Both the position numbers and the translations under genes were made by a program. From Alphaproteobacteria bacterium (GTDB lineage Bacteria > Pseudomonadota > Alphaproteobacteria > Bin95), in the NCBI GenBank assembly GCA_965202745.1, contig CBDBCB010000021.1:326295-390294 (forward strand): DNA of 64,000 nucleotides, written 5' to 3'. This document shows positions 1,358 through 63,220 of the stretch, piece by piece. The notes under the pieces are model-generated. The model had not been told where the DNA came from, ran no database searches, and worked only from the letters and a program-made list of their open reading frames with translations. How positions within the stretch are numbered: the first letter of the stretch is position 1; each line of letters starts with the position of its first letter.

Positions 1358-2970
1358 ATGAGCATGGACATAAATGCACCCCGGCCGACTGATGAGATCG
1401 TCGATGTACTGATCATCGGCTCCGGCGCGTCGGACGCTGCGGTGGCCTGGAGCCTGGCCGATACGCGAATGCGCATCCTCTGCCTGGAGCAGGGGGACTG
1501 GCTGAAGCCGACACACTTTCCCACCAACGGCCGGGATTGGGAGGCGCAGCGATTCAGTGACTCCGCCATCCTGCCGAACAGGCGGGGCCTGCCGGCGGAC
1601 TATCCGGTCAACGACGACAATTCTCTGATGAAGCTGGCGAACTACAACGCGGTCGGCGGCGCAACCGTACACTACACCGCGCACTTCCCGCGGATGCATC
1701 CCGCCGACTTTAAAGTGAAGAGCCTGGATGGGATCGCCGACGACTGGCCGCTCGACTATTGGACGCTGGAGCCCTTTTTCGCGGAGAACGACCGGATAAT
1801 GGGTGTCGCCTGGCTGGCGGGCGACCCGTCCTATCTGGCCCATGAACCGACCATGCCGCCGGTGCCGCTGGGCAAGACCGACACACGCTATGCACAGGCG
1901 ACGAACAAGCTCGGCTGGCACTGGTGGCCATCGGAAATTGCCGTCAACACTGTCGAGTATGATGGCCGCGCTGCCTGTATCAACCTGGGCAACTGCACAT
2001 CAGGCTGCGCGCAAGGGGCCAAGGCCAGCGTGGACATCACCTATTGGCCGGCGACCATCCGTGCCGGAGTCGAACTGCGTACCAACTGCCGCGTGCGGGA
2101 AATTCTGACCAACGAAAACGGCATGGCGTCGGGCGTGGTCTATTTCGACCCGGAGGGTGTCGAGCGGTTTAAGCCTGCGGAGGTGGTGATCCTGGCGGCG
2201 AATGGCGTCGGCACACCGCGGCTACTGTTGAACTCGACGTCTGGGCGCTTTCCCAATGGGCTGGCGAATTCGTCGGGGCTGGTAGGTAAGAACCTGATGC
2301 TGCATCCCTGGCCGCAGGTCACCGGCTATGTGGATGAGGAGGTCGATGGCGACCGCGACCCCCAGACCTGCATGTGGGGCAAGGAGTTTTACGAAACCGA
2401 CCGTTCGCGGGGCTTTGTGCGTGGCTATACACTGCAATATGCCCGTGGCACTGGGCCGGTGAACGAGGCGGTACAGAGTGCGGCGGCCGGGCGGTTGCCA
2501 TGGGGCCGTGACCATCACCGGGTTTACCGCACGCTCTATCAACGGCGCTTGCAGATCGGCATTGCCTGCGAGGACCTGCCGGAGGAGTACAACCGGGTGA
2601 CATTCGACCCAGTGCTGAAAGATAGCCACGGTATTCCCGCGCCGAAGATCGACTACACGACACGAAGGCGATGATGGAGCATGGCATCGCGCGCGCGACG
2701 GAAATTCTGGAGGCGGCGGGCGCCAAGAACATCTCTAGCTCGCGTACGGAACTGAACTATCCGGGGCACCTGTTGGGTACGGCGCGGATGGGCCTGGAGC
2801 GCTCCGTCGTGAACGAGTGGGGCCGCAGCCACGACGTGAAGAATCTGTTCATCGTGGATGGCTCGATTTGGGTGACGTCCGGCGGCGTGAACCCAACGTC
2901 AACGATTCAGGCGCTGGCGCTCTATATCGCCGACCAAATGAAACAACGGCTGGCGAACCTGTTTGATTGA
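1358..2970 (+). pseudogene. GMC-family FAD oxidoreductase, single frameshift near 2665-2675
   Basis: The N-terminal FAD fold (VLIIGSGASDAAVAWSLAD) continues to 2674. The typical GMC C-terminal domain (GTARMG..., DGSIWVTSGGVNPTSTIQALA) continues in another frame from 2671. The two ORFs overlap by 4 bp. Confidence 0.8.
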
Positions 2971-3432: not shown

Positions 3433-3923
3433 TGTTCCATTCCGGCTGATCAGATAGCCCCTCGTCGCTCTGCGTTTTTCATGGCACGCTGTGTTTTGAC
3501 CGAGGCGCGGGATGGGAGAGCGACATGGTGATCAAGCTTCACAGTCAGGCGACGACGCCACCGAAGATCAGGGCGGCCATACAGGCCAGTGACGACCCTG
3601 CGTGGGTTCTTGCCGAGCGTCACGGGACCACGGAACAGACCGTATGGAAATGGCACCAGCGTGCCAGCGTGGAGGATCGCAGCCACACGCCCCATCGCCT
3701 TCAGACGACGTTGACGCCAGCGCAGGAAGCTGTCGCGGTGGCCTTCCGCAAGACGCTTTTGGTCTCGCTGGATGATCTGCTGGCGGTGGTGTGCGAGTTC
3801 TTGAACCCGAAGGCCTCCCGCTCTGGCCTTGACCGCTGCTTGCGTCGGCATGGCGTGGGGCCCTGCGCACCCTGAAAGCATCATCGCCCCGGCCAAAGCA
3901 CAGCGCCTTCAAAGCCTATGAAC
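3433..3923 (+). mobile_element. IS481-family element copy 1, 5' fragment only, cut by IS256 copy A
   Basis: The left end TGTTCCATTCCGGCTGATCAGATAGCCCCTCG matches the ends at about 56530 and 63220. It carries the first ~116 codons of the transposase (3525-3875) and is preceded by CTTAGT. Confidence 0.85.
3525..3875 (+). pseudogene. IS481-family transposase N-terminal fragment
   Basis: MVIKLHSQATTPPKIRAAIQASDDPAWVLAERHGTTEQTVWKW... is identical in pattern to the ORFs at 55581-56450 and 62706-63128. Confidence 0.8.
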
Positions 3924-5296
3924 CGAGCTATGGCGAAAGTTGGTGACGGCTTGATCAGGCGGCGTTTTGCATTTGTTTGATCCCGTCGATGAATGCAATG
4001 CCCTGGATTATCCCAGGCATGCGATTTGCGCCGTCGCGCTTTCGCCATTTGCCCTGCGCTGACATCAGGAGCCTGACCGCCATGGCGAGGGCGGTCTTTC
4101 GGCTCAGACAGCCTTTGGTTTTACCTGTCCGGTGACACACCGTCGCGAAGGCGCTTTCGATGGGATGGGTGGTTCTGATGTGTTTCCACTGTTCTGCCGG
4201 GAAATCATAGAAGGCCAGCAGCACGTCACGGTCTTTGATCCATTTGGCTACCGCTTGTTCGTCTTTCACGCCGTAGGTCTCGATGAAGAAATCGCAGGCC
4301 GCCATGGCTTCGGCCTTCGTCTCTGCCTGCCAGATGTCGTGCAGGGGGCCTTTGGCTTTCGCTTGCACCGATTGGGGCATTGCCTTCAGCCCATTGCCGG
4401 TTTTATGGAACCAGCAGCGCTGTTCTGCGGTCGCGCCGAAGACCGCGCGAAGGGCGGCCCAGAAGCCCAGTGCACCGTCGCCTACCGCGAGATCGGGCGC
4501 GTGATTGAGGCCGCGCCGCTTGAGGTCGAGCAGGAGCGCGCGCCAGCTTTGGGTCCTTTCGCGATAGCCGTCGATCAGCCCCAGTATCTCCTTTCGGCCC
4601 CATTCATCCGCGCCGATCAGCACCAGAACACATTGCTTTTCTTCCATCCTTGGCTGGAAATAGACGCCATCCGCCCAGACATAGACGATGCGCCGGGCGC
4701 TGAGATCGCGCTTCTGCCAGCGGTCGTACTCCTCCCACCAATCGGACTTCAGCCGCGAGATGGTGGGGGACGACAGGCCCGCCGCGTTCGGCCCGAGCAG
4801 CGCGGCCAAGGCCGCCTGAAAATCGCCCGTGGAAATGCCGTTGAGGGAAAGCCAGGGCAGCAAGTCCTCGACGGACTTCGCCTTGCGCAGATACGGTGGC
4901 AGGATCGAAGAAGAGAACCGACCCTTCTCAGCCTGCCGATCACGATCCCGCCCGCGTGGCCCTTTCACGGGCACTGGGCCAATCCCGGTCATTCCCTCTC
5001 GTTCTGGCAGGTGAGCGTGACGAACGACCCGCGCGGGCCCCTCGGGCGTCGTCTCATTGGAAAATGGCGCAAGCCATGCGCTCCACTCAGCTTCAAGCGC
5101 TTGCTCGATCAACTGCCGCGCCCCGGAACGGATCAAATCCGTCAGCGGATCGGCGGAAAATCCCTTGGGATGGGGCAACGCGGTGATGGTATCTCTCGTC
5201 ATGGGGCATAGCCTTTTCTCAGCGAGAATTGCGGCGCGGGAACAACGCCATGATATGCCGCCCCTCAGGAAAATCACCAACTGTCAGCTGTTTCTC
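3924..5296 (-). mobile_element. IS256-family insertion sequence copy A (1373 bp), no target-site duplication
   Basis: More than 99% identical to copy B (14150-15522). Ends GAGAAACAGCTGACAGTTGGTGA... / ...CACCAACTTTCGCCATAGCTC. Flanks are CTATGAAC and GGCGCATT. Confidence 0.9.
3955..5280 (-). CDS. IS256-family (mutator-type) transposase
   Basis: 441-aa ORF with a DDE region (VWADGVYF, CWFHKTGN, HPIESAF). It differs from copy B at two residues. Confidence 0.9.
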   Translation of the reverse strand: MVIFLRGGISWRCSRAAILAEKRLCPMTRDTITALPHPKGFSADPLTDLIRSGARQLIEQALEAEWSAWLAPFSNETTPEGPARVVRHAHLPEREGMTGIGPVPVKGPRGRDRDRQAEKGRFSSSILPPYLRKAKSVEDLLPWLSLNGISTGDFQAALAALLGPNAAGLSSPTISRLKSDWWEEYDRWQKRDLSARRIVYVWADGVYFQPRMEEKQCVLVLIGADEWGRKEILGLIDGYRERTQSWRALLLDLKRRGLNHAPDLAVGDGALGFWAALRAVFGATAEQRCWFHKTGNGLKAMPQSVQAKAKGPLHDIWQAETKAEAMAACDFFIETYGVKDEQAVAKWIKDRDVLLAFYDFPAEQWKHIRTTHPIESAFATVCHRTGKTKGCLSRKTALAMAVRLLMSAQGKWRKRDGANRMPGIIQGIAFIDGIKQMQNAA

Positions 5297-7045
5297 GGCG
5301 CATTGCTGGCGACTGGTGTCGCCTATGTGCTGCCTCCGGTTTACGAGTCGACGGCCAAAATTTTGGTCGAAAGCCCTAAAATTCCAACGTCACTGGCCCA
5401 GTCAACGGTGACTGTTTCTGCGTTGGAACGGCTGCAAACAATTCAACAGCGAATTCTGGCCCGGGAAAATGTTCTGGATGTTATTGAGCGTCTGAACCTG
5501 TTTGCCGACCAGCCGGAACTCACGCCGACAGAGAAAGTCGACCGGATCCGCGCCGGTACGAGAATTGACATTATTGCCTTCAATTCGGCGGCCGGACGGC
5601 GGGCATCCAGAAACGCGCCAGTCACCGTGTCATCCTTTACGATCACCTATCGCCCGCCGACCAAAGACATCACGGCGCGGGTGGCCAATGAACTCGTCAC
5701 CCGTGTGTTGGAGCTGAACCTTCAGGCGCGGTCCGATCAAGCGCAGCAGACCCATGACTTTTTTACCCAGGAAGTGGAGCGCTATGCTGCGGATTTGATC
5801 GCGATTGAAACGGAAATCGCGAACTACAAGAACCAGAACGAAGGTTCGGCCCCGAACACGTTGCAGTCACGGCAAGGTCTGTTGCAGGGCGTGATTGCCC
5901 AATTGTTCAACAACAAGCAGCAGCAGGAACAGTTGCAACAGCAATTGGCAACGCTCAAAGAGACGTTGCGTACCCTGCGATCCCTGCCGACGCCAACGCA
6001 GAACCTGACCCAGGAAGAGCGTCAGCTGGCGGCGTTGAAGGCACAATTAACGGTTGAAGAACCACTGCTGACCGACGCTCACCCGACCGTCAAACAGCTT
6101 CGCCAGCAGATCGCTGCTATGGAGAAAGTGGTGAGTGGAAGCGGCAGCCAGACTAACTCCTCCAGTTCGGCCCAGACGCTCCAGATCACCAACCTGGAAG
6201 GGCAGATCAAGCACCTGCAAGAGCAGGAGGCGCGGGATTCAGAGCGTAAGGTTAAACTCGAAGCATCCATTGCCGACACGCCACGCGTGGAAATGGCGAT
6301 GAATGCTTTCAATCGCCGCCATGATGATCTGCGCATCCGCTATCAGGCTGCAGTGAACAAGCAGGCCGCGGCGGCGACCGGCGAGAAGTTGGAACTGGAC
6401 CAGAAGGCAGAGCGCTTTGAGCTCATTGAGCAGGCGCGCATCCCTCTGGCTCCGGTGGCGCCGAAACGGACTTTGATCGCGGCCGGCGGGGCGTTTGTGG
6501 CGCTCGGCGCCGGGTTTGCGCTGGCCCTGTTGCTGGAGATCCTCAGCTCCGCTATTCGCACGAGCGCAGACCTTCAGCGCACAGTGCAGCTGCGCCCGAT
6601 GGTGATCGTCCCCTATATTTATACGCCAGCGGAACGTCAGAAGCGCCGGTTTGTGGAGGTGTTTGCAGTGCTTCTGTTCATCGTTGTTTTGCCAAGCTCA
6701 ATCTGGCTGGTGGACCAGTACGTCCTGCCGATTGAGAAGGTGTCAGAGACAGTCATGAAAAAAAACCGCGCTTCAAAAGGTTTGGCTTTCGATCAAAGCG
6801 CGCCTGATCTGAGGAGAGTAAGGTGGTTAAACGCCTTAAGGATGCCATCAACAAAGCGCGCGAGCGACGGGAAGCCGGCGTCAGTGCGCCTGTCGAACCA
6901 CCGCCGCCGGTCGGTGAAACAACCCAGTCTGCGAATGAGTTACGGGACGCTATGCTGGCGGCCGTATCCAAGGGGCCCGGCGGGGTGCCTGGTACCACAC
7001 GGCGCGTGGCGGTGGATGAGGAATGGGCTTCGCTGCCGCAGTTGA
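5255..7045 (+). CDS. polysaccharide chain-length determinant (Wzz/GumC/ExoP N-terminal domain family), 5' end replaced by IS256-derived codons
   Basis: TM1 (LFLGALLATGVAYVLPPVYESTAKILVESP), a long coiled-coil periplasmic domain, and TM2 (LIAAGGAFVALGAGFALALLLEIL). The first 14 codons, including the ATG, lie inside IS256 copy A. The 3' 222 bp overlap the next gene in another frame. Confidence 0.7.
   Translation: MPPLRKITNCQLFLGALLATGVAYVLPPVYESTAKILVESPKIPTSLAQSTVTVSALERLQTIQQRILARENVLDVIERLNLFADQPELTPTEKVDRIRAGTRIDIIAFNSAAGRRASRNAPVTVSSFTITYRPPTKDITARVANELVTRVLELNLQARSDQAQQTHDFFTQEVERYAADLIAIETEIANYKNQNEGSAPNTLQSRQGLLQGVIAQLFNNKQQQEQLQQQLATLKETLRTLRSLPTPTQNLTQEERQLAALKAQLTVEEPLLTDAHPTVKQLRQQIAAMEKVVSGSGSQTNSSSSAQTLQITNLEGQIKHLQEQEARDSERKVKLEASIADTPRVEMAMNAFNRRHDDLRIRYQAAVNKQAAAATGEKLELDQKAERFELIEQARIPLAPVAPKRTLIAAGGAFVALGAGFALALLLEILSSAIRTSADLQRTVQLRPMVIVPYIYTPAERQKRRFVEVFAVLLFIVVLPSSIWLVDQYVLPIEKVSETVMKKNRASKGLAFDQSAPDLRRVRWLNALRMPSTKRASDGKPASVRLSNHRRRSVKQPSLRMSYGTLCWRPYPRGPAGCLVPHGAWRWMRNGLRCRS
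6758..6765. repeat. A8 homopolymer tract in the 3' region of the Wzz-like ORF
   Basis: atgaaaaaaaaccgc read directly. Confidence 0.9.
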
Positions 7046-13483: not shown

Positions 13484-14227
13484 TTGCCCATGACCTATTC
13501 CATTGTCGCCCGTGACCCGGAAACCGGCCATTTGGGGATCGCGGTGGCTAGCCGCTACTTCGCGGTCGGGGCGATTGTGCCCTATGTCCGCGGCGGTATA
13601 GGTGCGATTGCCTCACAGGCGTTTCCCAATCCCACTTTTGGAACGGACGGGCTGTGGTTGATGGAAACCAGGATGGCGCCCGAAAATATCGTAACCGCCT
13701 TCCTTGAGAGGGATAACGGCCATAATAACCGCCAGTTTCATATGATTGACGCCGCGGGCCGGGGCGCGGCTTTCACGGGCTTGAACTGTGTGGACTGGGC
13801 CGGGCACGTGAGCGCCGATGGTGTGTCGGTTGCAGGCAATATGCTGGAAGGCCCCCTGGTGGTGGAAGACACCCTTCGCGCCTACCAGGCAGCGATGGAC
13901 ACGCCCTTCATAGAACGCCTGCTGATTGCGATGCAGGCGGGCGAGGATGCGGGCGGCGACAAGCGGGGCAAACAGTCGGCGGCGCTGGTGGTCTATCGCG
14001 ACCAGAACTATCCGTGGCTGAACATCCGCTCCGATGATCATGGCGACCCGCTGTCCGAATTGCGCCGTCTCTATGCGGTGGCCCAGGAACGCTACCTGCC
14101 CATGGCAGAGATCATGCCGACACGCGAGAACCCGCACGGGCTCACCGACGAGAAACAGCTGACAGTTGGTGATTTTCCTGAGGGGCGGCATATCATGGCG
14201 TTGTTCCCGCGCCGCAATTCTCGCTGA
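13484..14227 (+). CDS. DUF1028-family (Ntn-hydrolase-fold) protein, 3' end interrupted by IS256 copy B
   Basis: MTYSIVARDPETGHLGIAVASRYFAVGA.... The last 26 codons, including the stop, are IS-derived. The native C-terminus (RSGIDAEIARLEEARLARGEASASFMRNKA*) resumes in frame at 15531. Confidence 0.7.
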   Translation: MPMTYSIVARDPETGHLGIAVASRYFAVGAIVPYVRGGIGAIASQAFPNPTFGTDGLWLMETRMAPENIVTAFLERDNGHNNRQFHMIDAAGRGAAFTGLNCVDWAGHVSADGVSVAGNMLEGPLVVEDTLRAYQAAMDTPFIERLLIAMQAGEDAGGDKRGKQSAALVVYRDQNYPWLNIRSDDHGDPLSELRRLYAVAQERYLPMAEIMPTRENPHGLTDEKQLTVGDFPEGRHIMALFPRRNSR

Positions 14228-15522
14228 GAAAAGGCTATGCCTCATGACGAGAGATACCATCACCGCGTTGCCCCATCCCAAGGGATTTTCCGCCGATCCG
14301 CTGACGGATTTGATCCGTTCCGGGGCGCGGCAGTTGATCGAGCAAGCGCTTGAAGCTGAGTGGAGCGCATGGCTTGCGCCATTTTCCAATGAGACGACGC
14401 CCGAGGGGCCCGCGCGGGTCGTTCGTCACGCTCACCTGCCAGAACGAGAGGGAATGACCGGGATTGGCCCAGTGCCCGTGAAAGGGCCACGCGGGCGGGA
14501 TCGTGATCGGCAGGCTGAGAAGGGTCGGTTCTCTTCTTCGATCCTGCCACCGTATCTGCGCAAGGCGAAGTCCGTCGAGGACTTGCTGCCCTGGCTTTCC
14601 CTCAACGGCATTTCCACGGGCGATTTTCAGGCGGCCTTGGCCGCGCTGCTCGGGCCGAACGCGGCGGGCCTGTCGTCCCCCACCATCTCGCGGCTGAAGT
14701 CCGATTGGTGGGAGGAGTACGACCGCTGGCAGAAGCGCGATCTCAGCGCCCGGCGCATCGTCTATGTCTGGGCGGATGGCGTCTATTTCCAGCCAAGGAT
14801 GGAAGAAAAGCAATGTGTTCTGGTGCTGATCGGCGCGGATGAATGGGGCCGAAAGGAGATACTGGGGCTGATCGACGGCTATCGCGAAAGGACCCAAAGC
14901 TGGCGCGCGCTCCTGCTCGACCTCAAGCGGCGCGGCCTCAATCACGCGCCCGATCTCGCGGTAGGCGACGGTGCACTGGGCTTCTGGGCCGCCCTTCGCG
15001 CGGTCTTCGGCGCGACCGCAGAACAGCGCTGCTGGTTCCATAAAACCGGCAATGGGCTGAAGGCAATGCCCCAATCGGTGCAAGCGAAAGCCAAAGGCCC
15101 CCTGCACGACATCTGGCAGGCAGAGACGAAGGCCGAAGCCATGGCGGCCTGCGATTTCTTCATCGAGACCTACGGCGTGAAAGACGAACAAGCGGTAGCC
15201 AAATGGATCAAAGACCGTGACGTGCTGCTGGCCTTCTATGATTTCCCGGCAGAACAGTGGAAACACATCAGAACCACCCATCCCATCGAAAGCGCCTTCG
15301 CGACGGTGCGCCACCGGACAGGTAAAACCAAAGGCTGTCTGAGCCGAAAGACCGCCCTCGCCATGGCGGTCAGGCTCCTGATGTCAGCGCAGGGCAAATG
15401 GCGAAAGCGCGACGGCGCAAATCGCATGCCTGGGATAATCCAGGGCATTGCATTCATCGACGGGATCAAACAAATGCAAAACGCCGCCTGATCAAGCCGT
15501 CACCAACTTTCGCCATAGCTCA
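14150..15522 (+). mobile_element. IS256-family insertion sequence copy B, flanked by an 8-bp target-site duplication TCACCGAC (14142-14149 and 15523-15530)
   Basis: Same ends as copy A. A perfect 8-bp direct repeat sits on both sides, as expected for IS256-family transposition. Confidence 0.9.
14166..15491 (+). CDS. IS256-family transposase
   Basis: 441-aa ORF, near-identical to the ORF at 3955-5280. Confidence 0.9.
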   Translation: MVIFLRGGISWRCSRAAILAEKRLCLMTRDTITALPHPKGFSADPLTDLIRSGARQLIEQALEAEWSAWLAPFSNETTPEGPARVVRHAHLPEREGMTGIGPVPVKGPRGRDRDRQAEKGRFSSSILPPYLRKAKSVEDLLPWLSLNGISTGDFQAALAALLGPNAAGLSSPTISRLKSDWWEEYDRWQKRDLSARRIVYVWADGVYFQPRMEEKQCVLVLIGADEWGRKEILGLIDGYRERTQSWRALLLDLKRRGLNHAPDLAVGDGALGFWAALRAVFGATAEQRCWFHKTGNGLKAMPQSVQAKAKGPLHDIWQAETKAEAMAACDFFIETYGVKDEQAVAKWIKDRDVLLAFYDFPAEQWKHIRTTHPIESAFATVRHRTGKTKGCLSRKTALAMAVRLLMSAQGKWRKRDGANRMPGIIQGIAFIDGIKQMQNAA

Positions 15523-15740: not shown

Positions 15741-15850
15741 GCTAAACAGGCGGTCATCATTGGCTAAACTTAGCCTAAACCGCACCTAAACCGTTTGGTG
15801 CCTAAAAAGTTTAGTTTTGCGCATAAAAGTTTAGATAAGTTTATGCGTTT
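15741..15850. repeat. Block A: five 11-bp-phased NCTAAAC hexamers followed by a conserved core (AAACCGCACCTAAACCGTTTG ... TTAGTTTTGCGCATAAAAGTTTAG) and a 9-bp palindrome GCGCATAAA-N12-TTTATGCG
   Basis: Read directly. Homologous, in inverted orientation, to 24781-24920. Confidence 0.8.
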
Positions 15851-15937
15851 TCAAAAACGCGGAGTGGCGTCAACGCGCCGCCAAACCAGTAACTATTTGG
15901 TAACCTTCGTTAATGGTGAGGGTCTCCTGGCGAGGTC

Positions 15938-16896
15938 TCAGTTCTGAAGAAGCGTGTGGACGGGCTGGTCGCCGGGGCCGTGCAGAATGTCCTGTATCAG
16001 CCTGGCGGTCCGGTCTTTTCCCAGCCGGGCGCGGCGTTGGCCATTCTCACCAAAGGCGGCTACCGGCTGGATTTGGATGAGTTGCTCCAGCGCAGTGATG
16101 GCCGATCCCTGCAGCACATCGCCTTCGTAGGCGGCGGGGGTCAGGTCGCCTCGCGCAAAGGCATAGGCCAGCGTGTAGCTGAGCGAGAACTGGGCCATGA
16201 TCAGGCTGACTGGCGCGCGGTTGCCGCAATAGGTAACGGCTTCGGGGTAGATCTCCAGCGTTACGGCTGAAATGGCGGCAGTGGATGCTGGACAGCATCT
16301 GGCAGAGCGCCGCTGACGCCGCTGAGGCCAAAGCATCGCCGTCGGCGTGGGCGTACAGGCGGCGACCAGCCCCCAGGTGCCGTCTCGTGAGTGCCGGGCT
16401 TGGCGCGGAACAGGGCGCCCATGCGCCCGCCGAACTCGAAACCGGCCGAGACGGCGTCGAGCAGCGAAGCCAGGGTCGCGCCGGTGCGCATTGCAGCGCC
16501 GATGGCTGCCGCCACCGCGTGCAGGCCCGGTCTGCCATGGGCGAACGCCAGGCCCTCGCAGGCCTCGTCAGCGCAGGCGGCGAGCGCGACCACATAGGCG
16601 GCCTCCGCTGGGCCGAGTGTCGTGTCGGTGCCTAGGAAACCCGGCTGACCACTGGGCTGGCCCAGGTATTGCAGGTCGACCTTGCGCAGTCCGGCGACCG
16701 CGCAGGCCAGGGTATCCAGCAGCAATCGCCGCGCCGCGTGATCGGCGGCTGTGTCCAGTGGAGTCTGCTCTACCCACTGACCCAATGCGCGCATGCGGGT
16801 GTCGTAGAGGTCTGCCGCTTGATCGGTTGGACTGGTCATGATGATCCGAAGCGCCCGATTTCTTGGGCCTGAACGCTTCCGCACCGCGGTACGCAA
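15938..16896 (-). pseudogene. MmgE/PrpD-family protein, frameshifted and shortened
   Basis: Two overlapping ORFs in different frames (16261-16896 for the N-terminal part, 15938-16336 for the C-terminal part). The combined length is far short of the ~450 aa usual for this family. Confidence 0.7.
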
Positions 16897-22048: not shown

Positions 22049-22094
22049 GGCAGGCTTCCTCTTTTAATTTCGCCAGTTCGTCCCTATATAGGGA

Positions 22095-22445: not shown

Positions 22446-22459
22446 GAGACACAGCGCCC

Positions 22460-22969
22460 ATGGTCGGCCCGAACGAAGAACACAGCAGAGATACCTACGA
22501 CCGGATGGTAGAGCAGGCGCTGAAAGGCGTGATGCGGGATGCCATTGCGGAAGTTGCCGAGAAAGGGTTTCTGGGAGAGCAGCACTTCTATATCTCCTTC
22601 CGGACAGTCTATCCTGGCGTAATGATTGCCGATGTCTTGCGCGCGCAATATCAGGACCAGATGACGATTGTGCTGCAGCACCAGTTTTACAATCTGGGTG
22701 TCTCAGACGACCACTTTGAGGTGACGCTGAGCTTCAACAAAAAGCTGGAGCGGCTGTCGATTCCCTTCGACGCGATCGTCAGTTTCGCCGACCCGGCGGT
22801 GGGATTCGGCCTGCAATTCAGCTCTGCCCTGGGCGATGCAGATGTGGACGGGCTGACCGGCGACAATAGCGACCAGGACCCGGAGGACGATCCGGAAGGG
22901 GACGATCCCGCCCCGCCGGAAGGCCCGGGCGAGGTGATCAGCCTGGACGCTTTCCGCAAAAAAACCTGA
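22460..22969 (+). CDS. sspB: ClpXP specificity-enhancing adaptor SspB (alphaproteobacterial type)
   Basis: 169 aa. HFYISFRTVYPGVMIADVLRAQYQDQMTIVLQHQFYNLGV matches the SspB-alpha fold pattern, with an acidic C-terminal tail. Confidence 0.8.
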   Translation: MVGPNEEHSRDTYDRMVEQALKGVMRDAIAEVAEKGFLGEQHFYISFRTVYPGVMIADVLRAQYQDQMTIVLQHQFYNLGVSDDHFEVTLSFNKKLERLSIPFDAIVSFADPAVGFGLQFSSALGDADVDGLTGDNSDQDPEDDPEGDDPAPPEGPGEVISLDAFRKKT

Positions 22970-23013
22970 TACAAGCACCCCACGCATAACTTTTCCGAAT
23001 GGAGTGCCGTCTG

Positions 23014-24621: not shown

Positions 24622-24780
24622 GCGGCGAGGGGGCCTTACCGCTAAGCATGCCTTTCCCGGGCGCATCCCCGGCTCCGGGCCGGGGGCAGGCCCGGAACCT
24701 CTGTCCCCCCAGGGATCTCTAGCCGGGTCTGGCCTCCATCCGCTCCCAGGCCCCTCATTGCTGAACCACTACCTCGTGAC

Positions 24781-24920
24781 GCTTCCGAGTTTTACCTAAA
24801 CAAAACTAAACTTTTATGCGCAAAACTAAGCCGTTTCGGAGGCAAACGGTTTAGGTGCGGTTTATCGAAAGCGTATCGCCTGTTTATTCCCCGTTTACCG
24901 GCGGTTTACTGCCAGTTTAT
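24781..24920. repeat. Block B: inverted homologue of block A, with 11-bp-phased GTTTA(Y) repeats (tgtttattccc / cgtttaccggc / ggtttactgcc / agtttattccc) leading into CAAACGGTTTAGGTGCGGTTT
   Basis: Read directly. About 80% identical to 15770-15850 over ~75 bp on the opposite strand. Confidence 0.8.
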
Positions 24921-25345: not shown

Positions 25346-25992
25346 ATGACCGATCCCGCCACCCTCATCGCCTATCTGCTCACCGCGGGAGCCATCGTCG
25401 TCTCTCCCGGACCTGATACCGCGCTGGTGGTCCGCCACACGCTCACCAGCGGCCTGCCCGCTGGGCTCGGCACGGTGGCGGGCACGAACCTGGGTCTTGC
25501 TCTCCATACGCTCGCGACTGTCCTCGGCCTCTCGCTCCTGATCGCTGCCAGCAAGACCGCGCTCGCCGTCATCGCCATTGCCGGCGCTGCCTACCTCGTC
25601 TTCCTGGGCTGGCAGGCATTCCGCGCCAGCGTGATCTCCTTCGGCAACGTGACGGCTTCGGTAGGCGCACCCTATGTCTCTGCCAGACGCGCGCTCCGCG
25701 ATGGCCTGATCTCCAACCTGTTCAATCCGAAGGTGATCCTGCTTTTTCTCTCGCTGATGCCCCAGTTCATCCAGCCGGCGGCAGAGCATGGCAGCGTGCC
25801 GCGGCAACTCGCCATTATGGGCGTTATCCTGATCGCCATGAGCCTTGCCTGGCAGATATACCCCTGGCGCTTGCGGCGGAGAGCGTGCGCGGCTGGCTGG
25901 CCCGGCCATCGGTGCAGCGCGGCATCAATTGGGTCACCGGTGCGATCCTGTTGGGCTTTGCCGCGCTCATGCTTTACGATCACACTCTCTGA
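25346..25992 (+). pseudogene. LysE/RhtB-family amino-acid exporter with a single frameshift near 25860 (C4 run)
   Basis: The N-terminal ~170 aa are typical of the family. The canonical C-terminus (LALAAESVRGWLARPSVQRGINWVTGAILLGFAALMLYD) continues in another frame. Confidence 0.75.
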
Positions 25993-26021
25993 GTTTCCGC
26001 TTAGCCGAAAGGCCCTTCCTC

Positions 26022-32391: not shown

Positions 32392-33570
32392 GTGTCCCGT
32401 CAAACTGTTATTGTCGGTGTCTCCGACGCGCTATTGCATGAGCGCGGCCGCGCCTTGCCGGGCACGCATGTGCTCAACATGCAGCTCGATTGTGCCAACG
32501 AAGCCCTTGCTGAAGCAGGCCTGACCATGGCCGACGTGGACGGCCCGGCCGTTGCCGGCATGTGGGGGATGCCGGGACCAGGTGCCATGCAGCCGAACCT
32601 GCTGGCCGAATATCTAGGTATCCGCTTCCCTAAGTATCTGGATGGCACCAATGTCGGCGGCTCTGCTTTCGTGCTTCATGCGGGCCATGCTTACTAGATG
32701 ATCAAGGCTGGCGTTTGTGACACGGTGCTGATCCTCTATGGCTCCATGCAGAAATCGCAGTCCGCCCGCTCGCTCGGCAGCCGTCCGGCGCTGTTCTCGA
32801 ACCAGTGGGACATGGTGGCAGGCCTTCCCTCACCAGCAGGCGCCTACGCTATGGCAGCCAACAGGCACGCGCATGTCTATGGCTCAACCCGCGAGACCCT
32901 GGCGGAAATCGCGGTGGCCACCCGCGCCTGGGCCGGGCTGAATCCCAACGCGGCCTTCCAGGACCCCATGACCTTGGACGATGTGCTGAACGCCGCCCCC
33001 ATCGTCGATCCGCTCGGCCGGTTCGACTGCTGTCTGGTGACCAATGGCGGCGGCGCTGTAATGATGACCACGGAAGAACGGGCCCGCGACCTGAAACAGA
33101 AACCCGTCTAAGTGCTGGGCCATGGCGAGAGTGCCAACCACGTCAACATCAACTACATGCCGAACATGGCGCATCTGGAAGTGGCGGAGCATTCCTCCCG
33201 CCGTGCCTATGCCCAGGCCGGACGCGGCTCCCAGGACATGGATATGGCCATGCTCTATGACAGCTTCACCATCACGGTGCTGCTGACCATGGAAGCGCTG
33301 GGCCTGTGCAAACTCGGGGAAGGCAAGGACTTCGTTAAAGGCCAGCGCACTGCGCCCGGTGGCGAGTTCCCCATGAACACCAATGGCGGCGGCCTAAGCT
33401 ACTGTCACCCCGGCATGTACGGTATTTTCCTGCTGATCGAAGCGACGCGCCAGCTGCGTGGCGAATGCGGACCCCGGCAGCTGGGCAACATCACCAACGC
33501 TGTCTGCCACGGCACCGGTGGCGTGCTTTCGTCAGGCGCTACCGTCGTTCTCTCGAACACCAAAGACTAA
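32392..33570 (+). pseudogene. SCP-x-type thiolase (acetyl-CoA acyltransferase family) interrupted by two in-frame stops (TAG 32695-32697, TAA 33109-33111)
   Basis: Three consecutive ORFs in the same frame, separated only by single stop codons, are collinear with a ~393-aa thiolase. The sites fall where Q or Y would be expected. Confidence 0.8.
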
Positions 33571-33583: not shown

Positions 33584-33988
33584 ATGACCTACAACAAACC
33601 GGTTCCCAGCATCGATCCCGACAGCGAGCCTTACTGGGAAGCCGCGAAAGAGGGCCGCCTGATGATCCAGCGCTGCAATGCTACGGGCCAGACGTTCCTC
33701 TACAGCCGCCAGCTCACCCCCGGCGTGGTCGAGAGCGAGGTAGAATGGATTGAAGCCAGCGGCCGCGGCACCATCTATTCTTTTACTGTTGCCCGCCGTC
33801 CGGCAGGGCAGGCATTCCAGGGCGATTGCCCCTATGTCATCGTGTCCGTAGAACTGGAAGAAGGCGCGCGCGTTATGTCCAACCTGGTCACCGACGATCC
33901 GGACAGCGTCGCCATCGGCCAAGCAGTCAAGGTGGTGTTCGATGCCGTCTCGGAAGAGCTGACCATCCCGAAATTCCAGCGGGTCTAA
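33584..33988 (+). CDS. DUF35 OB-fold / Zn-ribbon protein (thiolase partner)
   Basis: 134 aa with SD AAGGGAG. DUF35 proteins typically pair with SCP-x thiolases. Confidence 0.75.
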   Translation: MTYNKPVPSIDPDSEPYWEAAKEGRLMIQRCNATGQTFLYSRQLTPGVVESEVEWIEASGRGTIYSFTVARRPAGQAFQGDCPYVIVSVELEEGARVMSNLVTDDPDSVAIGQAVKVVFDAVSEELTIPKFQRV

Positions 33989-35021: not shown

Positions 35022-35213
35022 CGTTCAGCGGATCCCTCAACAGGCTCTGAGCGATGCGGTTTTGCTAGTTGGCTGATTCACTATGTTGGTGGTTCGATGG
35101 AGCCACTAAGCAGTGAACGGCGGAGCAATACTCGGCCACGGTAGCGGCAGCGTTGTGTTGTCGCGGGCGGCGTAAAAGTCGGCCACTTTTGTCCTTTCAA
35201 TTAATGGGAGGGC

Positions 35214-36727
35214 TTGGGGATATTCACCGTGGAATTGTATTTGAAGGTTCGCCACGCTCACTTTGAGGAAGGTTTGAGGGGGCGTCAGATTGCGCGGGAT
35301 TTTGGGATCAGCCGGGACAGTGTTTCAAAGATGTTGGCGTATTCTGAGCCGCCTGGTTATCGGCGTACGGCACCGATCAAACGACCAAAGCTTGATCCTT
35401 ATACCGAGCAGAGTGACCAGTGGTTGGCGGAAGACAAGGCCCGGCCTCGCAAACAGCGCCACACAGCCAACCGTATCTTTGAGCGGCTACGCGACGAATG
35501 CGCATTTGATGGTGGCTACACGATTGTCAAAGACTATGTGCGTTCGCCAAAGCGTGGCTCACGGGAGATGTTTGTGCCCTTGAGCCATCCCCCAGGGCAT
35601 GGGCAGGCGGACTTTGGCGAAGCGTTGGTTGGTATCGGCGGGGTTGAGCAGAAGGCCTACTTCTTTGCCCTTGATCTGCCGCATAGCGATGCGTGCTACA
35701 TCCGCGCGTATCCTGCGGCGAACACTGAAGCCTGGCTTGATGGGCATGTGCCCGCCTTTGCCTTCTTCGGCGCTGTACCGCGCTCAATCCTTTACGATAA
35801 GGATCGCTGCCTTGTGGCCAAGATCATGCCAGATGGCACCCGCAATCGTACGCAGCGGTTCCGTGCGATGCTATCTCACTACGTGATTGGGGAGAGGTAT
35901 GGTCGCCCCGGCAAGGGCAACGATAAAGGCAAGGGTGAGGGGCTGGTTGGTTACGGGCGTCGCAACTTCATGGTTCCAATGCCGCGGTTCGCGAACTGGG
36001 ATGCGTTCAACGACTATCTTGAAGAACAATGCCGCAAACGGCAGGCTGACATTCTGCGTGGCCACAAGATCAGCATCGGTGAACGACTGGGCGCTGATCT
36101 GGCGGCGATGCGCACCCTGCCAGCCGCGCCCTTTGAAGCTTGTGATCTGCAGAGCGGCTAGGTCACATCAACATCCCAAGGACGATTGCGTGGCAACGAT
36201 TACTCAGGGCCGGTTGCCTATGGCCACCGCGAGGGTTGGATCATTGGATCAAGGGCTTCGGTGACCGCGTCGTCATCGGGTGCGCCACCGAAGTCATCGC
36301 GGACCATCCCCGCTGCTATGACACGGGCGACATGATGTTCGATCCGGTACACTACCTGCCTCTCATCGAGCGCAAGATCATGTCCTTTGATCCAGCCACG
36401 CCATTGCAAGGCTGGGACTTGCCTGACGCGTTCCAAACCCTCCAACGATTATTGGAAGCCCGGCAGGGCAAGGCCGGAAAGCGGGAATATGTTCAGGTAC
36501 TGCGGCGGCTGGAGCGCTTTGAGCTGGAGGTTTTGCATCTGGCAATCAAAGACGCACTGCAGATGAGGGCGGTCAGCTTTGACGCAATCAAACACTTATT
36601 GCTTTGCCGGGTCGAGAGACGACCACCGAGACTGGATCTGGATGTTTACCCGTTCCTGCCCAGAACCAATATCGCAACAAGGGCGGCATCATCCTACATG
36701 AGCTTGCTGGCGGGAGATAGCGCATGA
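35214..36727 (+). pseudogene. istA: IS21-family transposase IstA, frameshifted between 36161 and 36236
   Basis: The N-terminal HTH and DDE region is at 35214-36161. The C-terminal region is at 36236-36727 in another frame. Confidence 0.8.
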
Positions 36728-37482
36728 GCGATGCTCCAGAACTGCTTTTGGCGAACCACCTCAAACCTCTGCGCTTGCCAACCTTCTTGCGCGCGCATGA
36801 TAAGCAGGCCCGCATCTGCGCCGCCGAAGGTGTAGATCATGGGCGCTATCTGGCGCGGTTGACGGAATTGGAACTGATCGACCGTGAACGGCGTATGGTT
36901 GAGCGCCGGATCAAATCGGCAAAGTTCCCGGCCGTCAAAAGCCTTGATAGCTTCGACTTCAAAGCGATCCCCAGCCTGAACAAGATGATGGTGCTGGCAC
37001 TGGCGCGCGGCGAATGGATCGAGCGCAAGGAGAACGTCATCGCTCTTGGCCCGTCAGGAACCGGCAAAACCCCCGTCGCCCTCGGGCTGGGTCTGGCCGC
37101 CTGCCAGAAGGGTATGCCGGTCAGCTTCGTCACTGCCGCCTCTCTCGTGCATGAGTTGATGGAAGCCAGAGATGAGAAACGCCTGCTGCGATTGCAACGC
37201 CAATTGGCCAAGGTCAAGCTGCTGATCATTGATGAATTGGGGTTCGTGCCGCTGAGCAAAACCGGGGCAGAACTGTTGTTCGAACTGATATCGCAGCGTT
37301 ACGAGCGCGGCTCAACACTGATCACCAGTAATCTGCCGTTCGAGGAATGGACAGAACCCTTCGGCACAGAACGCCTGACAGGTGCCTTGCTGGACCGGCT
37401 GACCCATCATGGGAATATCCTGGAGATGAATGGCGAAAGTTACCGCCTCAACCAAAGCAAATCCCGCCGCCCCAGAAGCTAA
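36724..37482 (+). CDS. istB: IS21-family helper ATPase IstB
   Basis: Walker A GPSGTGKT, Walker B LLIIDELG. Confidence 0.9.
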   Translation: MSDAPELLLANHLKPLRLPTFLRAHDKQARICAAEGVDHGRYLARLTELELIDRERRMVERRIKSAKFPAVKSLDSFDFKAIPSLNKMMVLALARGEWIERKENVIALGPSGTGKTPVALGLGLAACQKGMPVSFVTAASLVHELMEARDEKRLLRLQRQLAKVKLLIIDELGFVPLSKTGAELLFELISQRYERGSTLITSNLPFEEWTEPFGTERLTGALLDRLTHHGNILEMNGESYRLNQSKSRRPRS

Positions 37483-37618
37483 TCATCATCTGATTGGCCT
37501 AACGGCCAACGCGCCTCGGAACGTGCTTGCTATTTGAGGGCATCACGCCACAAGGCGCGGTGCCAAGGGGCCGACTTTTGCGCCGCCCCAGTGGCAGGTT
37601 TTTACGCCGCCGTTGACA

Positions 37619-38830
37619 AACCTTCCGTTCGAAAGCGACAGGACTTTTCCAGCCCAGTGCTGAGTGGCGGCGGCGCGGGTTATGGAAGCCATTAATGTCT
37701 TCGAAGATTGCCATCTCAGCTTGCCTGCGTGTTTCCCATGCCCGTCGCCAGATCATCTCTGCCTTGATGGTTTTGAAGAAGGTTTCGACAGCCGCATTAT
37801 CATAGCAGTTGCCTTTGCCACTCATGGACACCTTGAACCCGTGCTGCCGCAGGATCTTCTGATAATCGTGTGAGCAATATTGGCTGCCCCGGTCGGTATG
37901 GGGGATGCACCCCTTGGGCGGAGCGCGCAATGCGATGGCCATGTTCAGCGCCCGGATTGCCAGATCGCGCTTCATGCGATGGCTCACGGCCCAACCAATG
38001 ACACGACGGGAATGTAGGGCGAGGATCACTGCCAGATACAACCAACCCTCACGCGTCCAGATATAGCTGACGTCACCAGCCCATTTCTGATTGGGTTGGT
38101 TGACTGCGAAGGTCCGGTCCATCAGGTTTGGAGCAATGTTGAATTGGTGGTCACTGTCGGTCGTCACCTTGTGTTTGCGGGTTCTGACAACGGATATGCC
38201 GTTCTGACGCATCAATCTGCCGACGCGGCGGTGTCCGATATCCAGGCCGATCTCTTTCAGTTCTTCTGTCATCCGGGGTCTGCCGTAGCTGCCCAGGCTG
38301 AGACGGGACTGTTCTTTGATGTGGGCCAAAGTGACAAGATCAGACCGCTGCCTGCGGCTGGCTGGACGGTTGCGGAAAGCCCGCAAGCCTCGGGGACTGA
38401 CATCCATGACGTCACACAGCCGGTGGGGGGAAAGCTGTTGCGGTGTTCCTGGATAAACCTAAACCTCATGGCTTTTGGCGCGCGAAGAACTGCGTTGCCT
38501 TTTTTTAAGATGTCCCTCTCCTCCTGGAGAATGCGGTTCTCCCGTCGAAGCCGATCATTGTCTTGGGCGAGGCTCAAATCCTCTTTCGACACCACGTCTG
38601 TGTCTCTGTGTGCGGTCATCCACTTGTTCAGTGTCGACAGGCCAACACCAAGGTCATTAGCAACCTGTTTGCGCGTCAGCCTACTGGTCAGCGCTATTCG
38701 CACCGCATCCCGTCGAAATTCATCCGTCCGTTTCAGTCCCATAGTCAGTCTCCTTTGCTGCAATAAATGCTATCAAAGGGCCGGCATCAAACCGCGACTG
38801 GTCCAACGCGGGAAGCCAGGGTATTGCAGT
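37619..38830 (-). mobile_element. IS3-family element 1, 3' end truncated by the IS21 insertion; orfA-orfB arrangement with additional frame disruption
   Basis: orfB (37607-38407) has a DDE integrase core (HTDRGSQY, GNCYDNAAVETFF). Its last codons read into the IS21 end. orfA is at 38269-38742. The left boundary is approximate. Confidence 0.7.
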
Positions 38831-55689: not shown

Positions 55690-56530
55690 CTTTCGATGCG
55701 GCCATTGAACCGTTCGACCATACCGTTGGTCTGAGGTGACCTAGGCGGCGTCAGGCGATGATCGATATCGAGGGCGGCGCCCAGCGTGTCGCATTCATGC
55801 GCGCCTGTTGCGGCGCGCTGGCGCAGACCGAAGAGGCGATCCGTGAACTCTTTTCCATTATCCGGGAGTATGGGGCGGATCCGCATCGGGCAGGCGCGCT
55901 CCAGGGCGCGCAGGAAGCGCCGGGCATTGGCCGCTGTCTTGCTGTTGTAGACCCTGACAACAACCCAACGCGTTGCCCTGTCGATGGCCACGAAGAGGGA
56001 ACGGCGGCGGCTCTCATCTGCCATCGGTGGCAGGTATTTCAGGTCGATGGGGATGGAACCGGGTTCATAGGCTTTGAAGGCGCTGTGCTTTGGCCGGGGC
56101 GATGCTGCTTTCAGGGCGCGCAGGGCCCCCACGCCATGCCGACGCAAGCAGCGGTCAAGGCCAGAGCGGGAGGCCTTCGGGTTCAAGAACTCGCGCACCA
56201 CCGCCAGCAGATCATCCAGCGAGACCAAAAGCGTCTTGCGGAGGGCCACGGCGACAGCTTCCTGCGCTGGCGTCAACGTCGTCTGAAGGCGATGGGGCGT
56301 GTGGCTGCGATCCTCCACGCTGGCACGCTGGCGCCATTTCCATACGGTCTGTTCCGTGGTCCCGTGACGCTCGGCAAGAACCCACGCAGGGTCGTCACTG
56401 GCCTGTATGGCTGCCCTGATCTTCGGTGGCGTGTGAAGCTTGATCACCATGTCGCTCTCCCATCCCGCGCCTCGGTCAAAACACAGCGTGCCATGAAAAA
56501 CGCAGAGCGACGAGGGGCTATCCGATCAGC
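55690..56530 (-). mobile_element. IS481-family element copy 2, 3'-truncated; the internal transposase (55690-56450) lacks 4 codons relative to copies 1 and 3 and loses its C-terminus
   Basis: Left end ...GCTATCCGATCAGCCGGGATGGAACA at 56530. The ORF diverges after ERFNGRIE. Confidence 0.8.
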
Positions 56531-56839
56531 CGGGATGGAACAGATAGAAGGCCAGGCCGGTTGGCAAAGCCGGCAGCCAAATGGCCAGTTGCTCGCCCCA
56601 CCCCATGACGCCAGCGGCCACACTTGGCATCATCCGGACAACATGCTGTTTGCGGTCGTCAAATTCGGCTCATCCGCAGTGAGTGGCCAGCCGCTGGAGA
56701 CCAGCATGCCCATGTTCAACGACATACTGGGCGACCAGGAGATCGCCGCAGTGCTGGCCTATATAAAAAGCACCTGGCCAACGGAAATTCGCGCAAAGCA
56801 TGACGCCTTGAATGAGCGCATGCCCCAAACGGGAAAATG
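56531..56839 (+). pseudogene. C-terminal fragment of a c-type cytochrome gene, cut by IS481 copy 2
   Basis: Ends ...MFNDILGDQEIAAVLAYIKSTWP..., the typical C-terminus of a class I cytochrome c. The reading frame continues into the IS end. Confidence 0.55.
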
Positions 56840-57923: not shown

Positions 57924-57962
57924 TGCGCCTGGCGGCGCTTCCGGGACAGGTGGCTGAGGGGC

Positions 57963-59649: not shown

Positions 59650-60153
59650 TCAGGCTGAAAGGCGCTTGGTGAAGTGGTATTCGATGGACTGGGAGAGGTC
59701 GTGCAGGTTGCGCAATTCGTCGGCCTGGCTGAAGCCCATGGCTCTGTAGAAGGCGTGAGATACGGTGAACCGTGTGTCAGATCAGAGGTCGATAGCGCCG
59801 GCCTGCCATTGCTTTGCCTGGCTTTCCGCCTGGGCGACAAGGCGGCTTGCTACCCCAAGGCTGTGGAGGCACGGATGGACATACATCTTGACCAGTTCGG
59901 CCTGGGCTTCTTGGTTTGCCGGCGTGGGAATAACGCCGACACAGCCGACAACCCACTCGGCCGTGGGGAAGGACTGGGTCGCGACCCAAAAGCGTCCTCC
60001 CCTGGCGGCATAGTGCGAGGAGACCGCGCGGAGGCCGGGCTCCTCACCTGCAATGTCGAGGATGTTGCCTGGGTAGCGCACCCAACATTACGCGATGAGT
60101 GAGACGACCTGGCCGGAGTCAGCGTTGATAGCGGGACGGATGGTGGGGGTCAT
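59650..60153 (-). pseudogene. GNAT-family N-acetyltransferase with two in-frame stops (TAA at 60088-60090, TGA at 59782-59784)
   Basis: MTPTIRPAINADSGQVVSLIA-TAA-CWVRYPGNILDIAGEEPGLRAVSSHYAARGGRFWVA...GAIDL-TGA-SDTRFTVSHAFYRAMGF...EYHF reads in one frame. The TGA sits where LW-DTRF normally has Trp. Confidence 0.7.
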
Positions 60154-60919: not shown

Positions 60920-63220
60920 TGTCCCATCCTGGAAGGTAATATGGCTGTTTCCTTGAAGTGCTTGGTTTAGGTGGTCCAGGTGGAGCGTTAGAATCCAGCG
61001 GCTATTTTCATATCATCACTATGGCATAGTGATGATATATTTGCAAATTCTCTCGGCGTTCGGCCTTTGTGAGCCATGTGAGGTCGGCTCTCATTGTAAT
61101 GTCGCCTCCAGACATCTGATAGGCGCTGAGCTTCCGCAACGCTCCGGAACCAATTCACATTGAGAAGTTCATTTCGGACAGTCCCATTGAACGATTCTAT
61201 GTGCGCGTTATCGGTCGGCGTCCCCGGCCGGGAGAAGTCCATCTTGACCTTGTGAGTGTAGGCCCAGAGATCGACGATCTGACCCGTAAATTCGGCACCA
61301 TTGTCACAAAATATGCGATCTGGCCGACCATGAAGATAGACGAGCTTGTTCAGCACATGAGCCACGTTCTTACCGCGAAGTCTCGGCCCAACCTCAATAG
61401 CTAAAGCTTCTCGTGTAAATATATCAATGACCGTCAAGAAGCGTATCTTTGATCTGTTAGAAAGCCGATCCGACATAAAGTCCATTGACCACGCTGCATT
61501 AGCTTTGGTTGGCAATGGTCGGGCGGATCGATGCGTTGACATCTTTCGCCTGCGAGGTCGTTTGCGCCGTAAACACAGGCCCTCTTCGCGATAAAGGCGA
61601 TATACGACGTGCTTGCCGACATCCCATCCTTCACGCTTGAGCATGATATGGATTCGGCGATAGCCATATCGAATGTGCGTCTGCTGATCTCCCGCATTCT
61701 TTGCCTGAGCGCTGTGCGAGGATCACGTGTCAGCAGCTTGCGCTGAGTGAACCGATGCTGGCGGGTCAGACGGCAGGCTCTCCGCTGGCTGTAACGGTGG
61801 GTCTGCACCACATAATCGACAACCTGTTTCATGAGCGAAGGCCGGGAAACTTTTTTGATAGAACATCTTGCAAGACGGCTTTATCTAAACTCGGCTCAGC
61901 CACCAGCTTCTTTAGCCGCGCGTTCTCGTCAGTTAGCTATTTAAGCTCTCGAACCTGATCCGATTCCAGACCAGCATACTTCTTTTTCCATCTGTAGTAA
62001 GTCTGCTCGGTAATACCCATCTGCCGAGTCAAATCCGCGACAGGCAAGCCCAAATCGACGTGCTTAAGAGCCGCAACAATCTGCTCTGTGGAATATCGTC
62101 TTCTTGTTCGTGCCATTGGGTTTTCTCCTTCTCAAGAAAACCGCTGCAAAACTAACACCAAAATGGGACCACTTTTAAGAGGGCAGGTCATCCTGACCAG
62201 CTCTAGTTTGAGTTTTCGCCATCCCTTCATTGCCTGCAAGGGCGTCTTGCTGCCCAGGGCTGATTGCAGCAGCGGCTGGGTGTAAAGCCAGACATAGCGA
62301 AGCAGCGTGGCTTCCAGAACCTCGCCGGATCGGAAGGGATGGCTCTGCAGAACCTCTTCGATGCGGCCATTGAGCCGTTCGACCATACCGTTGGTCTGAG
62401 GTGACCTAGGCGGCGTCAGGCGATGATCGATATCGAGGGCGGCGCCCCCAGCGTGTCGCATTCATGCGCGCCTGTTGCGGCGCGCTGGCGCAGACCGAAG
62501 AGGCGATCCGTGAACTCTTTTCCATTATCCGGGAGTATGGGGCGGATCCGCATCGGGCAGGCGCGCTCCAGGGCGCGCAGGAAGCGCCGGGCATTGGCCG
62601 CTGTCTTGCTGTTGTAGACCCTGACAACAACCCAACGCGTTGCCCTGTCGATGGCCACGAAGAGGGAACGGCGGCGGCTCTCATCTGCCATCGGTGGCAG
62701 GTATTTCAGGTCGATGGGGATGGAACCGGGTTCATAGGCTTTGAAGGCGCTGTGCTTTGGCCGGGCGATGCTGCTTTCAGGGCGCGCAGGGGCCCCACGC
62801 CATGCCGACGCAAGCAGCGGTCAAGGCCAGAGCGGGAGGCCTTCCGGTTCAAGAACTCGCGCACCACCGCCAGCAGATCATCCAGCGAGACCAAAAGCGT
62901 CTTGCGGAGGGCCACGGCGACAGCTTCCTGCGCTGGCGTCAACGTCGTCTGAAGGCGATGGGGCGTGTGGCTGCGATCCTCCACGCTGGCACGCTGGCGC
63001 CATTTCCATACGGTCTGTTCCGTGGTCCCGTGACGCTCGGCAAGAACCCACGCAGGGTCGTCACTGGCCTGTATGGCCGCCCTGATCTTCGGTGGCGTCG
63101 TCGCCTGACTGTGAAGCTTGATCACCATGTCGCTCTCCCATCCCGCGCCTCGGTCAAAACACAGCGTGCCATGAAAAACGCAGAGCGACGAGGGGCTATC
63201 TAATCAGCCGGGATGGAACA
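60920..63220 (-). mobile_element. IS481-family element copy 3 (~1.06 kb of its own sequence) flanked by a 6-bp target duplication CTTAGG (60914-60919 and 63221-63226), with IS3-family element 2 nested inside at 60954-62190; the IS481 transposase is split into three frames (62132-63128)
   Basis: Ends TGTCCCATCCTGG... (60920) and ...CCGGGATGGAACA (63220) are inverted repeats. ORFs 62706-63128, 62416-62691 and 62132-62461 cover the DDE transposase. Confidence 0.85.
60954..62190 (-). mobile_element. IS3-family element 2 (1237 bp) flanked by a 4-bp duplication TCCT (60950-60953 and 62191-62194); orfA has an in-frame TAG, the A6G slippery site is present, and orfB is split
   Basis: Inverted repeats TGACCTGCCCTCTTAAAAGTGGTCCCA / TGAAGTGCTTGGTTTAGGTGGTCCAGG. 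orfA starts at 62116 (ELK-TAG-LTDENARLKKL). The orfB pieces at 61434-61832 and 60988-61644 carry a DDE core. Confidence 0.8.

Follow-up and report, generated by a model that had tools for sequence, protein, structure and literature searches.

Modules that combine a thiolase with DUF35, described as its partner protein, are well known from several systems, namely, the archaeal thiolase/HMG-CoA synthase complex, the Ltp2-ChsH2 and Sal-Shy aldolases, and BbsAB (PMC12960953, PMC12329534, PMC2954200). A locus of similar architecture lies in the window analyzed here (by which we mean the whole stretch of DNA, 64 kb in length, chromosomal DNA from an uncultured alphaproteobacterium): a thiolase-like gene with a Thiolase_C_1 domain adjoins a DUF35 gene encoding an OB_ChsH2_C domain and a zinc ribbon. 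Judged by this adjacency of thiolase-fold and OB-fold/zinc-ribbon genes, the thiolase would belong to the SCP-x thiolase/DUF35 module, and the synteny of the two genes is kept in more than 14 relatives. The window differs from the described modules in that the thiolase member is inactivated (Table 1). Among relatives of the thiolase in the PDB, the closest solved structure is 4u4e, and others are the lipid-transfer proteins 9myr and 6ok1 and BbsB (7pxp). In the alignment, we also observe that all members of this thiolase subfamily have NVGGSAF at the place of the nucleophilic Cys of canonical thiolases, which hints at non-thiolytic, perhaps aldolase-like, chemistry as in Ltp2 and Sal.

The thiolase gene is preceded by a ribosome-binding site 10 nt upstream of its start codon, and its read-through product is a thiolase-like protein of 392 residues. 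An earlier, sequence-only reading of this DNA had reported two in-frame stops in the thiolase next to an intact DUF35 gene, and re-reading the frames bears this out, with all orthologues examined being open. A genome scan with the thiolase returned 80 loci, the closest from uncultured Alphaproteobacteria (94% amino acid and approximately 77% nucleotide identity to orthologue L001 over a 392-codon colinear alignment), and a protein-guided metagenome scan added contigs with up to 81% nucleotide identity. No interruption was found among the 15 codon-aligned orthologues (15 of 15 without a stop), in the metagenome relative L086 (open over its full length), or in the metagenome relative L087 (open from codon 109). 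The site of the first stop is Glu in all 15 aligned orthologues, encoded by GAG in 10 and by GAA in 1 of the 11 close ones checked. The site of the second is Tyr in 11 close orthologues as well as in L086 and L087, with TAC in L087, the closest relative, and TAT or TAC in the others, and two more distant homologues carry Phe or His there. Since the stops fall at conserved residues and every orthologue examined is intact, the thiolase interruptions are specific to this lineage. Such a combination of intact full-length homologues and disabling lesions at conserved residues would identify the thiolase as a unitary pseudogene. A same-species strain was sought by exact-protein look-ups with DUF35, a thiolase fragment, and UbiX, none of which gave a match; the protein-guided metagenome scan for a conspecific copy yielded nothing nearer than the 81% already mentioned, and no metagenome contig matched a 41-mer that extends across the first stop and carries N in place of the mutated base.

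Table 1. Genes, lesions, and insertion sequences of the window, in order of position
Feature	Position	Strand	Description
GMC oxidoreductase pseudogene	1358..2970	+	frameshift by 5-bp tandem duplication (ACACG, ACACG) at 2655-2664
IS481 copy A	3433..3924	+	5' fragment, cut off by IS256 insertion; 1-nt deletion
IS256-family copy 1	3925..5300	-	ORF open; family by plasmid hits
IS256-family copy 2	14146..15521	+	inverted relative to copy 1
MmgE/PrpD-family pseudogene	15800..16896	-	several frameshifts; approximately 80 codons missing
DUF1127-like ORF, 70 codons	20884..21096	+	in-frame TAG at 20977-20979
LysE-family exporter pseudogene	25346..26000 (end approximate)	+	frameshift at C4 run within 25856-25869
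SCP-x-type thiolase pseudogene	32392..33570	+	GTG start, TAA end, two in-frame stops; Pfam Thiolase_C_1, 1.7e-57
Thiolase stop 1	32695..32697	+	in-frame TAG at conserved Glu102; G>T transversion
Thiolase stop 2	33109..33111	+	in-frame TAA at conserved Tyr240; transversion
DUF35/ChsH2-like OB-fold partner gene, intact	33584..33988	+	Pfam OB_ChsH2_C and zf-ChsH2; 14 nt downstream of thiolase
IS21 element	35205..37482	+	istA with TAG at 36159-36161 and 8-bp tandem duplication (TTGGATCA twice) at 36236-36251; istB open
IS3 element a	37499..38800	-	A7 at slippery site 38498-38508; C6 run 38422-38433 shifts orfB
Third IS256-like transposase ORF	41715-42923		open; Pfam Transposase_mut positions 13-369 of 379
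IS481 copy B	55692..56542	-	12-bp in-frame deletion, 3' end deleted, no frameshift
GNAT acetyltransferase pseudogene	59650..60153	-	TAA at 60088-60090; TGA at 59782-59784
IS3 element b	60988..62130	-	orfA TAG at 61937-61939; orfB frameshifted, with a further stop
IS481 copy C	62132..63220	-	two frameshifts; IS3 element b inserted near 3' end

In-frame stops could also be read through or recoded, by a suppressor tRNA, by insertion of selenocysteine or pyrrolysine, or by programmed readthrough, in which case the interrupted genes would be functional. This explanation has no positive support, and it is in keeping with the thiolase being otherwise well conserved; against it, TAG, TAA, and TGA all occur in frame, and the same codons terminate neighboring genes. 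In addition, the codons replaced by stops are ordinary ones for Glu, Tyr, Trp, and Gln, and the only tRNA gene in the window is a normal tRNA-Thr(CGU) (positions 20225 to 20300), 100% identical to the copy in relative L081. Interruptions shared by distant relatives, which the sequence-only reading had named as a sign of recoding, were looked for, and not one is common to any relative. We thus see neither an interruption conserved in relatives nor the reassignment of one specific stop codon, and because the interruptions are lineage specific, conserved recoding is excluded. With all three stop codons involved and no relative with the same interruption, recoding was rejected, and we consider functional readthrough of these genes extremely improbable.

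How long ago the thiolase was lost can be gauged from its substitutions. The dN/dS ratio against L001 is 0.04 at a dS of approximately 1.1, within the range of 0.03 to 0.14 seen between pairs of intact orthologues, and because the ratio is the same as between intact genes, the inactivation is probably recent. Strong purifying selection would have acted on the thiolase until shortly before its loss; a long-standing relaxation was rejected, as dN/dS is not raised on the window's lineage. Six private changes fall at sites invariant in 15 relatives (P5T, P14L, R32L, E102*, G130S, and D218N), that is, 6 of 392 positions, a modest excess over the 0 to 5 of the 11 closest relatives, with 3 to 19 in more distant ones. 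Enumeration of single-base changes shows that about 3% of random substitutions in the thiolase produce a stop; given this probability, the chance of a second stop within approximately 10 neutral substitutions is about 0.26 to 0.3. Two stops amid so little decay are therefore somewhat lucky, yet unremarkable.

Point mutations have also disabled other genes of the window, and most of what had been listed from the sequence alone holds. Both stops described for the GNAT acetyltransferase are present: the TGA falls on the invariant Trp of DLWSDTRF (TGG>TGA), and the TAA lies where homologues have Ala or Gln. Its acetyl-CoA motif is degenerate, with RRQGLARR replaced by LHSLGVAS and many further radical substitutions in the cofactor motif, and 6 of its 167 residues are private changes at invariant sites. 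These changes, together with the destroyed motif A, clearly speak for relaxed constraint after inactivation. The gene is intact in L083, from the closest complete relative, where it overlaps the end of a pentapeptide-repeat gene by 4 nt. The frameshift claimed for the GMC oxidoreductase proves to be a short tandem duplication; GMC_oxred_N lies in the first fragment and GMC_oxred_C in the second, in different frames, and deleting one ACACG unit restores ...KIDYTKAMMEHG... In the LysE exporter, the two frames on either side of the reported frameshift join into a near-complete protein spanning positions 3 to 192 of 193 of Pfam LysE; an orthologue that would polarize the lesion was sought in the relatives' loci, and none is present there.

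One further case turned out differently from its first description. The MmgE/PrpD gene, read as carrying a single frameshift, is indeed frameshifted, with its N domain in frame -2 and its C domain in frame -1, but it contains several frameshifts plus missing sequence rather than one. A DUF1127-like ORF with a TAG had been listed as a possible further case. The stop is there, and L081 has an intact ORF of the same length (70 amino acids) at the equivalent position (7718 to 7930), adjoining a DUF1127 gene, but Pfam does not recognize the ORF, and this positional homologue in L081 is its only support. Finally, we observe a 68-nt element in two inverted copies of 85% identity (positions 15776 to 15843 and 24797 to 24864), each adjoining a pseudogene (MmgE/PrpD and LysE, respectively). 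The element has no Rfam match at the gathering threshold and may be a small dispersed repeat.

The window is rich in insertion sequences, comprising an IS256 pair, a third IS256-like copy, four IS481 pieces, one IS21, and two IS3 elements, most of them defective. IS256 copies 1 and 2 (1,376 bp each) are 99.7% identical, differing by 4 substitutions and 0 indels, and bracket 8.8 kb encoding a Wzz-like protein, ggt, a luciferase-like monooxygenase, a PALP enzyme, an MlrC peptidase, and DUF1028. Copy 2 replaces the last codons of the DUF1028 gene, and the pair probably clips the 5' end of the Wzz-like gene. Target-site duplications were sought on the four flanks of the pair and found on none, an absence suggesting that recombination or deletion took place later and that the pair does not form a simple composite transposon. 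In the third IS256-like ORF, visual inspection shows that residues around the DDE region are missing (e.g., ...VVHGPDAIN...), and its decay may have come about by missense changes together with a short in-frame deletion instead of stops.

The claim that all IS481 copies are frameshifted holds for A and C; copy B instead carries an in-frame deletion and a 3' truncation. Abutting the 5' end of copy B is a cytochrome c gene (positions 56541 to 56819) without its first 69 codons, which is intact in the closest complete relative. Insertions are nested between positions 60166 and 64000, with IS3-b lying within the 3' end of IS481-C and IS481-C within a pentapeptide-repeat gene. The latter is thereby split into a C-terminal part (60166 to 60927) and an N-terminal part (63238 to 64000), and its copy in L083 is intact (797 amino acids). 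The istA gene of the IS21 element had been credited with a single frameshift; the frameshift is real, in the form of an 8-bp duplication, but an in-frame TAG is present as well. A Sulfitobacter homologue has CAG at the site of this TAG and lacks the TTGGATCA duplication. Two frameshifts in the window thus stem from independent short tandem duplications, of ACACG in the GMC oxidoreductase and of TTGGATCA in istA, a slippage-type mutation class that is distinct from homopolymer indels.

Members of the IS3 family use programmed -1 frameshifting at an A AAA AAG slippery site between orfA and orfB. IS3-a resembles them in its orfA/orfB arrangement and in having an A-run at the expected place. It differs in that A7 replaces the canonical A6G, so that orfA runs in frame into the start of orfB, the equivalent of a constitutive frameshift product, after which the C6 shift breaks orfB; these are mutations and not a programmed event. 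IS3-b differs further in having a TAG in orfA, as had been pointed out, at a site that is Gln in a Shinella homologue (CAG>TAG).

An obvious concern is that the genome was assembled from long metagenomic reads and that errors of sequencing or assembly introduced the stops and frameshifts into genes that are intact in the organism. The contig runs through near-identical 1.4-kb IS copies, which implies long-read assembly, and the lesions were called on the assembled sequence. Some of the frameshifts lie in C4 to C7 or A7 runs, where long-read errors also occur, three or four of them (LysE, IS3-a twice, and the IS481 copies) in short homopolymer runs. However, homopolymer runs of at least 4 bases occur 290 times in the 36.6 kb of open coding sequence (61 runs have at least 5 bases and 9 at least 6), with 0 frameshifts, and the IS256 pair is likewise free of indels. 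The 5- and 8-bp tandem duplications and the 12-bp deletion are not error types, nor would errors readily produce the multiple lesions of MmgE/PrpD or the many additional radical substitutions in the GNAT cofactor motif.

The distribution of the lesions points in the same direction. The 19 point lesions are confined to 11 of 61 coding units, where a clustering simulation expects 15.8 (P = 0.002), and IS units hold 10 of the 19 on 19% of the coding length (P = 0.001). This clustering and IS enrichment are as neutral decay of already dead sequence predicts, unlike random error. Decay is also graded by gene: private changes at invariant sites number 6 of 167 in GNAT, 6 of 392 in the thiolase, 3 of 540 in the FumA control, which is thus clean, and 0 of 134 in DUF35 (sites invariant in 11 orthologues). 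Such grading fits neither a uniform error process nor a strong uniform mutator, and uniform error or uniform hypermutation was rejected on the basis of the FumA and DUF35 controls, the clustering simulation, and the homopolymer count. From this indirect but consistent evidence, we infer that the lesions are real mutations, present in the living organism rather than in the assembly alone, and regard wholesale sequencing error as quite unlikely.

Whether these mutations share a distinctive cause is a separate matter. The window could reflect a genome-wide process, either a mutator (a mutY, mutS, or ung defect) or host-restricted reductive evolution, with a GC-to-AT signature, and the sequence-only reading had proposed such a signature, taking the nonsense changes to be transitions of the CAG/CAA/TGG type. 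Neither part of that proposal survives. Of the five stops that could be polarized, three are transitions (GNAT TGG>TGA, IS21 CAG>TAG, and IS3-b CAG>TAG) and two, both in the thiolase, are transversions (GAG>TAG and TAC/TAT>TAA). When all single-base changes in the thiolase are enumerated, 21 to 36% of the nonsense paths are transitions at a kappa of 1 to 2, and 60 to 63% run from GC to AT by construction, because stop codons are AT-rich. The observed spectrum is the default for any GC-rich gene and carries no information on repair. The skew that a mutator would leave is absent, the polarized changes matching expectation (no repair gene lies in the window), and this removes a tempting over-reading, as the genetic code itself gives GC-rich genes a GC-to-AT nonsense bias, which is silent on repair defects.

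Other features of the window are more in line with a genome-wide process. Roughly 6 to 10 of approximately 50 non-IS genes are dead, a high density of pseudogenes (approximately 12 to 20%), and IS copies or fragments number at least nine, some of them nested in others. Gene order is altered as well: the blocks at positions 21113 to 24673 and 54610 to 60153, 30 kb apart here, are separated by 2.9 Mb in the closest complete relative, a 5.16-Mb circular genome (at 1.26 and 4.18 Mb; L081 and L083), and the window lacks the MarR-RND efflux cluster found after fumA in L081 and L082. FumA, with its three private changes, stands slightly above the median of about 1; since it is near baseline, this speaks against a strong uniform excess of mutations. 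Also against a genome-wide cause, the window has a G+C content of 61% with no AT drift, the thiolase shows no rise in dN/dS on this lineage, and the long core genes are intact. The last point had been made from the sequence alone and stands, as ggt, fumA, thyX, phaA, and the fds genes are open; together with copA, opgH, fdsGBA, fdhD, a P450 gene, and others, they are open and complete against profiles or relatives. The tmRNA (positions 22058 to 22389) is of the permuted two-piece alphaproteobacterial type, with the tag ANDNDYALAA. One 64-kb window is, moreover, as compatible with a plastic, IS-rich region, which may belong to the large genome of a free-living organism, as with a genome-wide trend. 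We consider a process acting across the genome from a distinctive cause possible but doubtful.

The reading that we prefer is that the thiolase is a genuine, recent pseudogene, one of at least six point-mutated genes in the window, with at least two more genes (up to four) disrupted by IS elements, and we assign it a probability of roughly 0.82. Real lineage-specific pseudogenes of different ages among mostly defective IS copies are supported by the evidence above, and the original description of the window as undergoing ongoing pseudogenisation fits it, given the lineage-specific lesions, the graded decay, and the IS load. Under this explanation, selection on a set of accessory genes would have lapsed at different times. 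Each gene may first have been disabled by a nonsense substitution, by a short tandem duplication, by slippage in a homopolymer, or by insertion of an IS element, and further lesions would then have gathered neutrally in the same gene. Elements of the IS256, IS481, IS21, and IS3 families would have inserted, nested, and recombined, and then decayed likewise. We infer this order of events from the present state of the genes. What the window holds is ordinary ongoing gene decay in transposon-rich sequence, with no special mutational signature or recoding. Automated annotation would fragment the thiolase, GNAT, GMC, LysE, and MmgE/PrpD genes, and metabolic reconstructions should count them as lost.

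More tentatively, and with rather low confidence, the window could be read as early genome-wide degradation, in which the spread of insertion sequences, the rearrangements that they mediate, and the loss, step by step, of accessory functions, the thiolase-DUF35 module included, might follow a recent shift to host association or a small population. In that case, the window would capture a lifestyle transition in a clade known only from metagenomes. Should the same density of pseudogenes hold across the genome, the organism would serve well to illustrate early genome decay in a marine or sediment alphaproteobacterial clade about which little is known.

The phenomenon itself is already known. Pseudogenes and insertion sequences build up under relaxed selection in Shigella, Bordetella pertussis, Mycobacterium leprae, and Sodalis. 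The window resembles these genomes in that nonsense mutations, small indels, and IS elements disable accessory genes and core genes remain intact. The likeness extends to the dead genes, which carry multiple lesions, to the IS copies, which are defective and nested, and to gene order, which is rearranged compared with relatives. It differs from them in that its G+C content is still 61%, that 64 kb are seen, that the closest complete relative has a genome of 5.16 Mb, and that the window bears no sign of host association.
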